Source of the DNA: Candidatus Kuenenia stuttgartensis
Lineage (GTDB): Bacteria; Planctomycetota; UBA11346
DNA length: 64,000 bases
Reading direction: 5' to 3'
Assembly: GCA_945876185.1 (NCBI GenBank)
Contig: CAMCMZ010000010.1
Coordinates: forward strand, 4,614 to 68,613
The position numbers and the translations under genes are program-made. Numbering within the stretch: the stretch's first letter is position 1; each line of letters begins with the position of its first letter. The notes beneath the pieces were generated by a model that searched no databases, was not told where the DNA came from, and worked only from the letters and a program-made list of their open reading frames with translations. Below are positions 8,414 to 60,441 of the stretch, piece by piece.

Positions 8414-8506
8414 CGTCCCGTAGGGACGAGGTGATGGTAGCCCGGGGTTTCAACCCCGGGTTTCACGACCATCGAGTGAAACTAGTCCCGTAGGGACGGC
8501 TGAAGA
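8414..8506 (-). repeat. Composite hairpin repeat element, copy 2 (inverted relative to copy 1)
   Basis: The reverse complement reads cttcagCcgtccctacgggact - 23 nt - cccggggttgaaaccccgggcta - 9 nt - cgtccctacgggacg. It has the same three modules, in the same order and with near-identical cores, as copy 1. Confidence 0.85.
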
Positions 8507-30137: not shown

Positions 30138-30335
30138 CGCCCCGTTGATTTGGCCGGAACAGGGTCGGACCCAACCGCTTGCGCCGGGGACCGCCAGGCT
30201 CCAGCCTAGCAAGCGACCTGGTGCGCACCAGGCGCCTCAGGCACATTTGTTTTCGCTGTTGTTCCTGTTTTTCTCCACCTTGCCAGCACCTTGTCACCCC
30301 CGTATCACCCGTCCTCCACTCACACGAGGCCCAAC

Positions 30336-31244
30336 ATGTCCGCGCAATTCGGCTCCTGGATCGGCACCGGCTCGGCCGGCACCTACACCCCCACCGTCGA
30401 TCCCGCTCTGGTCGATGATCCGCGCTTTCCAGCGCTATTGGCTGCCGCGAAGGGTGGCGTCTCGTTCGCCGGTGCGGTCGGCATCGTCACCGGCGCCAGC
30501 GATCCGCATTCGATCGGTTACCGCATCGCGCTGAACCTCGCGCGCGGTGGCGCCTCGGTGGTGATCACCGGTTCGCGCGACCTGCCGAAGATCACTGCTA
30601 CCGCTGAACAACTGGCGGCTGAGGCAAAAGCCGGCCGCGTCCTGCCGGCCCAGGTCAACCAGGGCGACCTGCCCCAGATCGACGCCCTGCTCGACCACCT
30701 CAAGGGTCAGAACCTGGCCGCGACGCACATCTTTCCATTCGCGGCGATCAACCATCCGGCGCTGTTCTCCGGCATCCGGCCCGAGGACTACGCCCGCGTT
30801 TTCGCGGTGAATGTCTATGGCGTCTATCATCTGGCAGCCCAGCACGCCCGCCGCGCCCCGCGCAACGTGCCCTGGTACGTCTGCATCCCGCTGTCGCCGA
30901 ACGATGGCAGATTGCAGGGCTCCGGCCTCTACCCGGCAAGCAAGCAGGCGCTGCGACCGATCGTCGTCCAGGGCCAGAACGAGATCGGCGACCGTCGCGG
31001 CGGCACCTATACCGGGGTCGAGATCGCCTGGACTCGCTCAGCGTTGATGAGCAAGCTCGACGCCGGTGTCGCCGCCGCACGTGCGGAAGGGCTGAAGGTG
31101 TTCGAGACCAGCGACACCGCTGACGTCTGCACCCTCTGCGGCATCCCGGCCGCACAGGCGCTGAAAGGTACCGTGATCGACGCCGGCGGCGGCTTCGGCA
31201 AGGTCAGTCCCGCCACCATGGCGAAGGTGCTCGGCGGACACTGA
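30336..31244 (+). CDS. Short-chain dehydrogenase/reductase (SDR) family oxidoreductase
   Basis: Rossmann motif IVTGASDPHSIGYRIA, plus the catalytic Y-x3-K (YPASKQAL). I chose the ATG at 30336 rather than the longer ORF from 30291. Confidence 0.7.
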   Translation: MSAQFGSWIGTGSAGTYTPTVDPALVDDPRFPALLAAAKGGVSFAGAVGIVTGASDPHSIGYRIALNLARGGASVVITGSRDLPKITATAEQLAAEAKAGRVLPAQVNQGDLPQIDALLDHLKGQNLAATHIFPFAAINHPALFSGIRPEDYARVFAVNVYGVYHLAAQHARRAPRNVPWYVCIPLSPNDGRLQGSGLYPASKQALRPIVVQGQNEIGDRRGGTYTGVEIAWTRSALMSKLDAGVAAARAEGLKVFETSDTADVCTLCGIPAAQALKGTVIDAGGGFGKVSPATMAKVLGGH

Positions 31245-31250
31245 CGGCAA

Positions 31251-31405
31251 AATGCTTAAATGCTTAAATGCTTAAATGCTCGAATGCTTGAATGGTAGAG
31301 TGATTGAATGCCTGAATGTTCGAATCCCAATATTCAAGCATTCAAGCATTCCGGCATTCAAGCATTTCCCCAAGTCTCAAGCATTCCGGCATTCGAGCAT
31401 TTCCC
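31251..31405. repeat. Palindromic array of 8-bp tandem repeats (AATGCTTR units, then inverted CATTCAAG units)
   Basis: The left arm has ten consecutive 8-mers from 31251: aatgctta x3, aatgctcg, aatgcttg, aatggtag, agtgattg, aatgcctg, aatgttcg, aatcccaa. The right arm, from 31331, carries the reverse-complement units (tattcaag, cattcaag, cattccgg, cattcaag, catttccc...). It fills the gap between convergent genes. Confidence 0.9.
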
Positions 31406-31409
31406 CCAC

Positions 31410-33680
31410 TCAGGGTTTCAGCACACTTTCACTACGATACGCCCCGGTTTTCAGATCAAGCGTGCCGGTGAACTTATGGCCTCCGGCTTCGATGGTGAGG
31501 ACGCCTTCCTTCCAGCCGAGGTCGAGCGGGCCGCCTTTGCCAGCAGGTGAGCGGAACAGAGCGCGGTGGGCTGAGAGGTCGTGCTCCTTGCCGGCGCGCC
31601 AGACGCGCACGGTTTTCTCATCGCTGAACTGGAGGGCGACAGACGCGCCAGAGGCGGCGCTGACGCCGACCTTGCTCTCCGCCAGGGCAGAGAGGTCGAC
31701 CTTGGCGTTGGCCAGCACCTTGGCTTTGAAAGCATCGAAATCGCCATGGGTTTCTGCTTCGCCGATTTCAATGGCAAACCCGGAGACCGGGCCGGCGCTG
31801 ACGTCGCCGGACAACAGGGCGGTGCCGGCGGGGGCGCCGGTCTTGCCGCTGAAGTTCTTGTGGCGGGCGGGGTCGAGTCCCTTGAATGCGCCGTTGACCG
31901 GCAGGAAGGCGAGCCAGGTGCGTTCGCATTTCACCAGGGCCTTGCCATCGATGACTTCGACCGTGGCGTCGCTGGGGACCTGGATGTTCCACTGGCCTTT
32001 GTCAGTGCGCTTGAGGAAGAGCAGCAGGTTCCGGTGCTGGGCGATGCGGTCATCCTTGCTGCGGTTGAGGACCAAGCTGCCTTTTTCCTGAGTGCTGGGG
32101 ATGATCAGGTCGCAACCGCGAGTGGCGTGGTCGACCAGGATCTTGCAGCCGGCAACGTCATAGCCGCTGCCTTCGACCAGCGATCCGGCCTGGTACGTCT
32201 TGGCGATAAAGGTCGTTTCATGGTACAACGGTTGGTCCGCGGCCCCGGGCAGCCAAGTGCTGTAGGTCGGGTGGCTGACGAGGATTTCCACCGGCTCGGG
32301 GAATTCCTTCTTCATCAAGGCCACGGTGGCGGCCGGCGGACGGTAGGCCGAGGTCACGAAGTGGACCAGATCGCGGTCGGGATGCGGCAGGGGAACCGGC
32401 GAACCGGCGAAAAGGTAGCCGACCTCGGCCGGCCCTCCGCAGAGACCGGTTGTAGTGCCGTAATCGCGAGCGGCGGGTGCGGCGCTGGCTCCACGGCGGT
32501 ATTTCAAGGCACCGGTCGCGGTCAGATAGTCCAAGATCGCCTTGGCGAAACCGCGGACTTCCGGATCCTTGGCGAAGTCGTGTAGATTCACATAGGCCGT
32601 AATGGTGTGGGCGAGATACGCCGGGCTGTCCCATTCGCCCATGCCGATGCTGAAGAAGTTGCGCGCCGTGACGCGCAGGCGCTCTTTGGCGATGCGGCGC
32701 ACGAGTTCGTTGCCAGTTTCCTCTGCCAACAGGTAGACGGTGGTTTCGCGCATGCCGCGCAGGTTGTCGGTGCAGCGCCACTCGATCACCCCGCCCCGGG
32801 TGCCGGGTCCCCAGGATTCTCCGACCGGTCCGGCGCCGATCCCGTGGGTTGGGTGGGGGCGCTGGTTGGTGCGGCGATCGTATTCCTCGAAGACCAGCCA
32901 GTCGCCGGCGGCGAGCAGGGCGTACCAGGTGCGCCAGGCGGCGAGGTCTTTGGGTGGTTCCGGCGCCAGCACCGGAATAACCTTGTCGCGCAGGTATTTG
33001 GCAAAGGCCTTCTTGTTGGTCTGGCCTTCGCGCTCGGCCGCGTCGGCCATCTCGCTCAATTGAGCCGGGGAACGCCAAATCTTTGCCAGAGTTTCCGCAG
33101 CATAGGCACGGACCTGCTCATCCGGGCAGTCCAGCAGCAGCACCAGTTCGAGGTTCGGCCGGGGATCGGTCGCGACCAGGGCGGCCGCGCCGGTCTTCAT
33201 TAGCGCAAGATGGGCGGGATCGAGGTGCTGACCGAAGAAGAAATACTTCCGCATCTGCCCCTTGATGGTGAATCCGTAGTAGAAGTCGACGCCCTTGGTT
33301 TCAGCGTTCTGGCCGGCTTCGCCGTCCGGCGCGCACAGCATGGCGATCGAGGCTTTGCGTTCGGCGTCGCCGGCCGGGTCACTGGTCGCGCCCGCCGCGA
33401 GGAACGACATGCAGTTGACCGGGTAGGTGTTTTTCTCGCGTTCATCAGCGGTGCCGCCCGGGTGCTTTTTGGCATAGGCCCGGATCGCCGCATCGGCGCG
33501 GGTGCGAAAGGCGTCTTCGTATTCCGCCGGCCAGGGATTGGCGAAGCCGGCCGGCAGCGGGATCGGTACCGGGACGATGCGGCCCTGCGCATCGACCGTG
33601 ACGCGGTCCTCGCCGGAGTGCCCCAAGGACAGCGCGGCAGCGAGGATGGAGGACACGAGGCTGAGCCTGAACGAGGTCAT
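31410..33680 (-). CDS. Large secreted protein of unknown function (signal peptide)
   Basis: Coding-like 756-aa ORF from the ATG at 33680 (MTSFRLSLVSSILAAALSLGHS). I recognised no domain. Amino-acid composition is normal, unlike the shadow ORFs. Confidence 0.6.
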   Translation of the reverse strand: MTSFRLSLVSSILAAALSLGHSGEDRVTVDAQGRIVPVPIPLPAGFANPWPAEYEDAFRTRADAAIRAYAKKHPGGTADEREKNTYPVNCMSFLAAGATSDPAGDAERKASIAMLCAPDGEAGQNAETKGVDFYYGFTIKGQMRKYFFFGQHLDPAHLALMKTGAAALVATDPRPNLELVLLLDCPDEQVRAYAAETLAKIWRSPAQLSEMADAAEREGQTNKKAFAKYLRDKVIPVLAPEPPKDLAAWRTWYALLAAGDWLVFEEYDRRTNQRPHPTHGIGAGPVGESWGPGTRGGVIEWRCTDNLRGMRETTVYLLAEETGNELVRRIAKERLRVTARNFFSIGMGEWDSPAYLAHTITAYVNLHDFAKDPEVRGFAKAILDYLTATGALKYRRGASAAPAARDYGTTTGLCGGPAEVGYLFAGSPVPLPHPDRDLVHFVTSAYRPPAATVALMKKEFPEPVEILVSHPTYSTWLPGAADQPLYHETTFIAKTYQAGSLVEGSGYDVAGCKILVDHATRGCDLIIPSTQEKGSLVLNRSKDDRIAQHRNLLLFLKRTDKGQWNIQVPSDATVEVIDGKALVKCERTWLAFLPVNGAFKGLDPARHKNFSGKTGAPAGTALLSGDVSAGPVSGFAIEIGEAETHGDFDAFKAKVLANAKVDLSALAESKVGVSAASGASVALQFSDEKTVRVWRAGKEHDLSAHRALFRSPAGKGGPLDLGWKEGVLTIEAGGHKFTGTLDLKTGAYRSESVLKP

Positions 33681-33757
33681 GGGAATGCCTTTCTGCGAGG
33701 TCACGGGATCGGGACCGAGCGCCAGCATGAGGAATACGGTCTGAGGCGCCCCATGTT

Positions 33758-33821
33758 GCCGCGAACCAGTGCCGCGAACCAGTGCCGCGAACCAGTGCCG
33801 CGAACCAGTGCCGTGAACGGT
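33758..33821. repeat. 13-bp tandem repeat (GCCGCGAACCAGT x4 plus a degenerate fifth unit)
   Basis: Perfect units at 33758-33770, 33771-33783, 33784-33796 and 33797-33809, then gccgtgaacggt. It is intergenic, between the phosphohexomutase stop (33827) and the start of the secreted-protein gene (33680). Confidence 0.9.
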
Positions 33822-44563: not shown

Positions 44564-44630
44564 ATGGCCACAAAGAACACAAAGGCCACAAATCGCCATC
44601 CTATGTGATCCTTGTGTTCTCTGTGGCCAT
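44564..44630. repeat. Long inverted repeat (21-bp stem) flanked by ~28-bp imperfect direct repeats
   Basis: ATGGCCACAAAGAACACAAAGG (44564-44585) pairs with CCTTGTGTTCTCTGTGGCCAT (44610-44630). The flanking direct repeats begin CCAAAGAAC at 44528 and 44644. Confidence 0.75.
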
Positions 44631-60412: not shown

Positions 60413-60417
60413 GGGGA

Positions 60418-60441
60418 AATGCTTGAGTGCTTGAATGCTGG
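60418..60441. repeat. Three-unit copy of the 8-bp AATGCTTG repeat family
   Basis: aatgcttg, agtgcttg, aatgctgg. It almost fills the 31-nt spacer between the tesA-like stop (60444) and the ABC ATPase start (60412). On the coding strand it ends CAAGCATTTCCCC-ATG, the same terminal motif seen at 31358-31370 in the large array. Confidence 0.7.

Follow-up and report, generated by a model that had tools for sequence, protein, structure and literature searches.

What is a 155-base tract built of two opposed runs of a single 8-base unit, AATGCTTG, and why does it occupy the gap between two convergent genes? We read this tract in the window (the whole stretch of DNA analyzed here, 64,000 nt long), which belongs to a Planctomycetota MAG of 3.8 Mb with 66% GC and 82% completeness (G000), and compared its unit with the rest of that genome, with related genomes and with genomes from other phyla.

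Anatomy of the octamer tract and its spacer

The units of the left arm read, in order, aatgctta (three times), aatgctcg, aatgcttg, aatggtag, agtgattg, aatgcctg, aatgttcg and a degenerate aatcccaa (Table 1). The ten head-to-tail octamers from 31251, the first three of them aatgctta, that the initial annotation had described are borne out by the sequence and by TRF, which finds period 8 twice, at 31251-31318 (8.5 copies) and 31332-31366, as well as a period of 16 over 31338-31401. The pivot, which had been placed near 31327, was found at about 31325-31334, and the reverse-complement octamers expected after it lie at 31335-31407. The right arm terminates in the boundary motif GCATTTCCCC(C) and contains a local 35-bp duplication (31343-31377 and 31378-31407), which the orthologous element in a genome of the same genus (G001) does not have. 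The two ends of this duplication are CAAGCATTTCCCC at 31359-31371 and GAGCATTTCCCC at 31395-31406; these are the two local copies of a motif that had been reported at slightly shifted positions, and the remaining copy of that motif was placed exactly, at 60413-60425, where it forms the boundary of a second array, of three units. A two-unit probe allowing up to three mismatches had 16 matches in the window against 0.26 expected, and none of 100 shuffles gave as many. The GC content of the tract is 0.41, compared with about 0.66 in its surroundings.

Table 1. Features of the tract and its neighborhood (positions in the window), and unit numbers at orthologous arrays in the genome of the window (G000) and in G001.
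Feature	Position	Strand	Description	Basis	Units in G000	Units in G001
Upstream convergent gene	30291..31244	+	short-chain dehydrogenase/reductase (SDR)	Pfam adh_short_C2/adh_short
Left arm	31251..31330	+	ten in-phase AATGCTTG-type octamers; outer three identical (AATGCTTA), tenth degenerate	sequence, TRF, probe matches
Pivot and loop of palindrome	31321..31334 (pivot about 31325-31334)			loop position in folds
Right arm	31335..31407	-	AATGCTTG-type units, reading CAAGCATT on the plus strand (caagcatt and similar)	sequence, TRF, probe
Downstream convergent gene	31410..33728	-	772 aa, conserved	3′ end aligns with G001
Second array of the window	60413..60441	+	GGGGA, then three units; fills the spacer of two minus-strand genes
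Window palindrome					9+8	3+4
Array	C9:14725				3	6
Array	C72				7	3
Array	C10:65031				3	6
Array	C100				5	3
Inverted pair	C70				5+7	3+4
Array	C22				6	6 + N-gap + 7
Array	C21				4	2
Array	C9:21118				4	3

The element fills the whole 165-bp spacer between the two convergent genes. The array begins 6 nt after the TGA stop codon of the SDR gene (31242-31244), and the stop codon of the 772-aa gene (tca on the plus strand, 31410-31412) lies 2 nt past the boundary motif at the other end. Orthologues of the SDR gene were found in 30 of the 31 family genomes searched, and in three other genera (G044, G042, and G012) the spacer at its 3′ end contains inverted heptamer or octamer arrays of TCGTTCG, GGATGGT, and GTCCGGAA. 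The 772-aa protein had no match in Pfam or NCBIfam. A separate tandem repeat is located at 33757-33818, between the start of the 772-aa gene (33728, reverse strand) and an ORF that begins at 33782 on the forward strand: its 13-bp unit TGCCGCGAACCAG is repeated 4.8 times with 97% identity (TRF score 117).

Folding of the tract gave -67.5 kcal/mol (z -8.5) for the plus-strand RNA, -74.6 kcal/mol (z -8.0) for the minus-strand RNA, and -35.7 kcal/mol (z -6.4) for the DNA. An imperfect stem of about 70 bp forms from either strand, and no shuffle folds as well as either RNA strand; the earlier description of the tract as a tandem array that is at the same time a long imperfect palindrome, capable of a hairpin of about 70 bp, agrees with the sequence and with these folds. 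The G:U asymmetry between the strands amounts to only 7 kcal/mol and is not decisive for strand choice. The tract is probably transcribed into both 3′ UTRs, where it is predicted to form a long hairpin; the RNA forms of the unit are (AAUGCUUG)n and (CAAGCAUU)n.

The octamer family in the genome and its relatives

The genome search that the initial annotation had proposed gave 74 matches for the two-unit probe against 0 for its reversed control, and identified a family of 15 arrays, distributed over about 13 loci and each made up of 3 to at least 16 units, so the array is not unique. AATGCTTG is the sole AT-rich octamer family in whole-genome TRF. Two arrays with the same orientation and at least 14 units each lie at contig ends (the start of C23 and the end of C61); long arrays evidently break the assembly. 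The arrays themselves are not assembly artefacts: the sequence around them is unique, an independent MAG has them at orthologous positions, and they are present in complete isolate genomes. The second array of the window lies 2 nt past one stop codon and 5 nt ahead of the next ATG, and has six units in its G001 orthologue. C70 is a second inverted pair, with an 83-bp spacer; most members of the family are single arrays, unable to form a hairpin. The units are strictly tandem, with a conserved AATGC core and other positions variable, and a boundary motif, GGG(G)AAATGCT (also written GGG(G)AAATGCTTG), is common to several loci and to a genome of another genus (G010). The unit has 37% GC in a genome of 66% GC, and its GC-richer variants (AATGCTCG, AATGCTGG, and AATGCCGG) may reflect the amelioration that an AT-rich unit would undergo in a GC-rich host. 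The neighboring genes are of housekeeping type and have no common function.

Repeats of other units were also observed in these genomes. For example, C37:1398-1524 of G000 contains (GCTGAGTTC)x3 followed by (GAGCAGT)x14, upstream of the start of an SDR-type gene, and in G010 (L295:1380-1530, contig C81) three arrays are stacked in one spacer, namely a GACAGCCGAT-type array, GTCGCGGT x4, and CGAGCATT x7. At about 2440-2520 of L146 (G001 C28; orthologous to G000 C100:2094-2133), an array adjoins an apparent, putative tRNA 3′ end (GGTTCGAGTCCCAC...).

We searched 40 relatives for the unit: it is present in G001 (96% complete) and in G010, occurs once in G020, and is absent from G002 (of the same genus, 94% complete) and from the remaining genomes. 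Comparison of G000 with G001, in which the array flanks are 82-92% identical, revealed unequal unit numbers at all 10 orthologous loci compared (Table 1); all the genomes are short-read MAGs, so the assembly may have collapsed the unit counts of long arrays, and variation in the population may be masked by the consensus. The length comparison that the initial annotation had called for, made here between two genomes of one genus, shows the arrays to be variable; of the three roles it had suggested, only the slippage-prone microsatellite has direct support. An array unique in the genome and invariant in length would have spoken against a special function; with about 13 loci, and unit numbers that differ at all ten of the loci compared, this array is neither. 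An eleventh element, in G001 C37 (5+4 units, 104-bp spacer), has no counterpart at G000 C3:33311-33368; arrays are kept at 10 of these 11 sites through about 10-15% DNA divergence. None of 12 arrays of G010 adjoins the orthologue of a G000 gene that has an array, and all four inspected G000 spacers orthologous to G010 arrays are empty. Arrays therefore gain and lose units quickly, as replication slippage would give, and elements appear and disappear between close relatives, while another genus has the unit in different spacers. Taken together, the unit-number differences, the empty sites and the non-orthologous G010 arrays indicate that the family changes by slippage and also gains or loses sites. 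A palindromic insertion of about 230 bp in G001 C7 (L304, about 1200-1640) lies between two direct copies of a 31-bp host sequence (TCAGTCGTGGTGGTAGCCGGTGCCGGCGAGG); its empty site is the orthologous G000 C21:43100-43140.

The arrays are closely associated with the ends of genes, with gaps of -1 to 8 nt between stop codon and array. Three AATGCTTG units contain a TGA in every frame, and the CAAGCATT strand contains neither a stop nor a start codon. The TGA of the array itself terminates the upstream gene at C61 and at C9/L143 in G001 (...W K K C L N A stop). Across phyla, arrays after stop codons are split 19 to 12 between the two orientations, and arrays adjacent to start codons read CAAGCATT in the sense direction in 11 cases versus 2. 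That translation stops in every frame of one strand may be why gene ends tolerate the arrays.

The exact three-unit word was found in 102 stretches of species-representative genomes; the hosts are one archaeal MAG and bacteria of at least nine phyla, and in several of these genomes it occurs at many loci. Pure arrays occur sporadically in unrelated isolates (e.g., Francisella, Bartonella, and Shewanella), and the unit was found in none of 400 other sampled Bacteroidota genomes. We dropped horizontal transfer as a reading of this cross-phylum occurrence, since the unit is rare and its recurrence may be the yield of a large unit diversity. In viral contigs the exact three-unit word is present in only 5 stretches; phage carriage looks low.

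Short tandem arrays around small genes

In two Bacteroidota genomes, AATGCTTG-type arrays bracket a gene of the PF05635/TIGR02436 family (L061:2073-2453 and L050:5198-5614). The two proteins encoded between these arms are mutual best hits with 62% identity, and share at most 43% identity with others. Brackets of this kind were also found with other units: of 20 PF05635 genes in four genomes, at least 14 lie between inverted arrays, whose 6-9-bp unit varies among the copies (another copy, L170, has GGACTGAA arms). In the family to which the genome of the window belongs, PF05635 genes are found in 30 of 47 other genomes, a single genome having as many as 30 matches, and 11 of the 26 PF05635 loci read there have inverted 10-mers common to both flanks, mostly GC-rich heptamers. 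Among metagenome homologues with at least 58% identity, 12 of 20 have phased AATGC-N3-AATGC flanks, compared with 2 of 31 more distant homologues of similar GC content (Fisher p = 5e-5, with related sequences treated as independent). On these sequence comparisons, arm type tracks the clade of the PF05635 protein.

No PF05635 gene was found in G000, G001, or G002 (82%, 96%, and 94% complete), and in G049, which is rich in AATGCTTG arrays, PF05635 genes occur only with other arms, so AATGCTTG arrays proliferate without a visible cognate gene. The tract encloses no ORF between its arms. The spacers compared, those of the inverted pairs in C70 and L148 and of the tract itself, are unique and unrelated to one another, with no conserved core or remnant ORF. 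A second kind of small gene, GxxExxY, was found between inverted arrays of other units: in G000 a TIGR04256 (GxxExxY) gene lies between inverted CACAAAGRG 9-mer arrays (C58:17497-18135, L125), and the GxxExxY gene of G001 has inverted ACAGGATG arms. The arms of this 9-mer family, GGCC + (ACAAAGRGC)x3, have 67 matches, and there are 22 gene-less pairs that form hairpins of 63-241 bp with unrelated spacers; one such gene-less pair is in the window, at 44566-44629, and the gene-bearing copy is 639 bp long. A literature search on PF05635, TIGR02436, and S23p returned nothing on flanking tandem arrays, and we found no paper describing the link between gene and array; searching the literature for the unit itself, in every rotation, brought up primers and unrelated matches only.

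Two further arrangements were seen in Bacteroidota MAGs. In a Prolixibacteraceae MAG (L061:1131-1928), a 51-bp higher-order repeat, made of four GAATGCAT-type octamers and a 19-bp linker, is repeated 16 times; it adjoins an inverted AATGCTTG array and a PF05635 gene and is open as an ORF (ECMNARRRECFNEEIKN...). In a Saprospiraceae MAG (L042:5009-7334), five tandem SSB paralogues of 122-133 aa have a AATGCTTG array between each.

Explanations and comparison with known systems

We favor, at about even confidence, the reading of the window tract as a gene-less, slippage-prone member of a class of array-armed intergenic repeats. The AATGCTTG arrays would then be orphan arms of a small-gene cassette; they may come from a low-GC donor, given the low GC content of the unit in this GC-rich genome, and may be carried passively. 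Transcripts of the two convergent genes would both run into the imperfect stem, which, if active at all, would act as an RNA structure at the 3′-end, either a barrier to exonucleases or a substrate of RNase III. The genome encodes RNase III, and by analogy with the S23p intervening sequences, which are RNase III substrates (PMC4990558), a processing or stabilizing effect of the hairpin is plausible. Persistence at 10 of 11 sites through the divergence given above would also be compatible with a selected function for the arrays. The link between gene and array itself can be read either way, with the arrays as the arms of a cassette or as a landing site for the gene. In a wider reading, which as a whole we put forward only tentatively, selfish cassettes of a widespread and so far undescribed class would have tandem inverted arrays of 7-9-nt units as their recognition arms, and their cargo would be a small oligomeric protein (a PF05635 four-helix bundle or a GxxExxY PD-(D/E)XK nuclease). 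One protomer would read one unit, so that unit and protein would co-evolve; gene-less arrays would be orphan, slippage-active footprints that shape 3′ and 5′ UTRs and sometimes donate stop codons; and the same phenomenon would take in the STRR and TAACTGA repeats already published.

Several other explanations have to be weighed against the gene-less repeat that we favor. The tract may be a protein-binding array, in which each 8-nt unit is a putative site for one subunit of an oligomeric nucleic-acid-binding protein that regulates or organizes the neighboring genes; candidates are an Avd-like four-helix bundle, ribosomal protein S1 or a cold-shock protein (on RNA), and a nucleoid or AT-hook protein (on DNA). 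The strict periodicity with a conserved AATGC core, the co-variation of arm unit with PF05635 clade, the orientation bias upstream of start codons (11 versus 2), and the regulator binding proposed for TAACTGA repeats (MacGregor, PMC4679880) all suit this explanation, but no PF05635 gene was found in the three genomes of the genus, unit number is conserved at no compared locus and the neighbors have no function in common, and we consider it rather unlikely. We regard as unlikely, too, a selected RNA module at the 3′-end, serving both transcripts as a bidirectional terminator, a 3′-exonuclease barrier, or an RNase III site. The tract does sit 6 nt and 2 nt past the two stop codons and fills the spacer, its strands (-67.5 and -74.6 kcal/mol) fold better than every shuffle, a palindrome is also present at the orthologous G001 site, inverted arrays of other units follow the SDR gene in other genera, and RNase III is present and cuts the S23p intervening sequences (PMC4990558). 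Against this, the arms of G000 and G001 differ in length by a factor of more than two, the outer AATGCTTA units are expanded on one arm only, and most family members are single arrays that cannot pair, so a terminator function cannot be a common property of the family.

An intrinsic terminator is a short GC-rich stem-loop followed by a run of U, whereas the stem here is AT-rich and about 70 bp long, with tails (UUUCCCCC and UUUUGCCG) that hold no U-run, and a consensus scan of 31245-31409 found no terminator site. The arrays may also be microsatellites that arose independently in situ from chance AATGCTTG-like seeds, with no common origin, mobility, or link to a cassette. The evident slippage dynamics, the overall rarity of the unit, and the sporadic pure arrays in unrelated isolates speak for this explanation; we nevertheless find it improbable, because about 13 loci have one AT-rich unit in a 66% GC genome (reversed control 0) that contains no other AT-rich octamer family, the boundary motif is shared, unit and boundary occur together at non-orthologous sites in G010, and the layout of inverted pairs recurs. 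It is very improbable that the tract is a phase-variation (contingency) locus, at which unit number would switch a flanking gene: unit number changes fast, and at C9/L143 and C61 a gene takes its last residues and its stop codon from an array, but the tract is downstream of both genes and leaves frame and promoter spacing unaffected, unit number has no bearing on frame when every frame contains a TGA, and the neighbors are of housekeeping type.

STRR and TAACTGA repeats have been known for decades without a mechanism or a known function. The points added here are the presence of AT-rich, foreign-looking arrays in GC-rich Planctomycetota, with a unit number that changes at all loci compared between genomes of the same genus, the ability of arrays to rewrite gene ends through donated stop codons, and the use of the same unit as inverted arms of a four-helix-bundle (S23p/Avd-like) gene elsewhere, with arm type following protein clade. 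If the link between gene and array is causal, many bacterial repeats that now lack an explanation would have an origin open to test, and a function would be suggested for two small proteins that are very common but of unknown function. In practice, such arrays break short-read assemblies and shift the annotation of gene ends.

We compared the tract with known systems. CRISPR arrays have repeats of 23-55 bp and unique spacers of similar length. The units here are 8 bp long and stand head to tail with no spacers, and we rejected a CRISPR array. A search against Rfam 15 gave no match at the gathering score, only sub-threshold hairpin look-alikes of miRNA precursors (at most 28 bits against cut-offs of 53-100). 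Five matches to Y1_Tnp were found in the genome, none with an excess of AATGCTTG units in its flanks, and the best of them, a Y1/RAYT gene at C8:10866-11195 (L306), is flanked by different, REP-like palindromes (GTCCCGTAGGGAC and CCCGGGGTTKAAACCCCGGG), which looks like a classical REP-RAYT system; the same palindromes are seen in other spacers (e.g., C3:16980-17100), and a further probable copy is the repeat that TRF lists at 8441-8465 (unit CCCCGGGTTTCAA). The initial annotation had seen no match to CRISPR, REP, or a typical terminator, and the unit size, the terminator scan, and the differing RAYT palindromes confirm this. REP/BIME and REPIN-RAYT elements are, like the AATGCTTG element, extragenic, palindromic, multi-copy, and often at the 3′-ends of genes, but REPs are not tandem arrays of short units. 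A classical MITE would have terminal inverted repeats, a target-site duplication, and a conserved internal sequence. Inverted arms are present here; the three spacers compared (C70, L148, and this tract) are unrelated, and no target-site duplication is visible at the single presence/absence site. Hairpin MITEs such as Correia elements are likewise gene-less, multi-copy inverted repeats that are transcribed with their neighbors and lie near stop codons; unlike them, the AATGCTTG element has no conserved core, varies in arm length by unit slippage, and has no identified transposase partner. With the contingency loci of host-adapted pathogens it shares slippage in unit number, but many AATGCTTG loci share one unit, and the window tract lies downstream of both stop codons and not in a frame or promoter.

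The S23p/PF05635 ORF is found in intervening sequences of 23S rRNA (for example, in Coxiella and Leptospira), which have terminal inverted repeats that pair into a long RNA stem and are excised by RNase III (PMC4990558). AATGCTTG similarly forms inverted arms around the same gene family elsewhere (L061 and L050), whereas the window locus has no ORF, lies between protein genes and not in rRNA, and has arms of tandem 8-mers in place of a unique 28-bp stem. The closest published analogues are the TAACTGA repeats and the heptamers of the cyanobacterial STRR. TAACTGA direct repeats are intergenic and occur in marine Beggiatoaceae, cyanobacteria, and some Bacteroidetes; MacGregor proposed that they bind a post-transcriptional regulator, and a single indirect TAACTGA repeat was reported in BOGUAY (MacGregor 2015, PMC4679880). 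The AATGCTTG arrays differ from these repeats in their unit, in a period of 8 and not 7, in a GC-rich planctomycete host, and in their frequent hairpin-forming inverted pairs, and the PF05635 / GxxExxY gene link is not described in the TAACTGA paper (PMC4679880). By the features that define STRRs, the AATGCTTG family has many loci with one unit, stops in three frames, and overlap with gene ends, but its unit is not a heptamer. Like TAACTGA and STRR repeats, it consists of short tandem units at many intergenic loci per genome, sporadic across phyla, and, as in the TAACTGA repeats, these units stop translation in three frames one way and are open in reverse, overlap the stop codons of upstream genes, and lie near start codons (PMC4679880).
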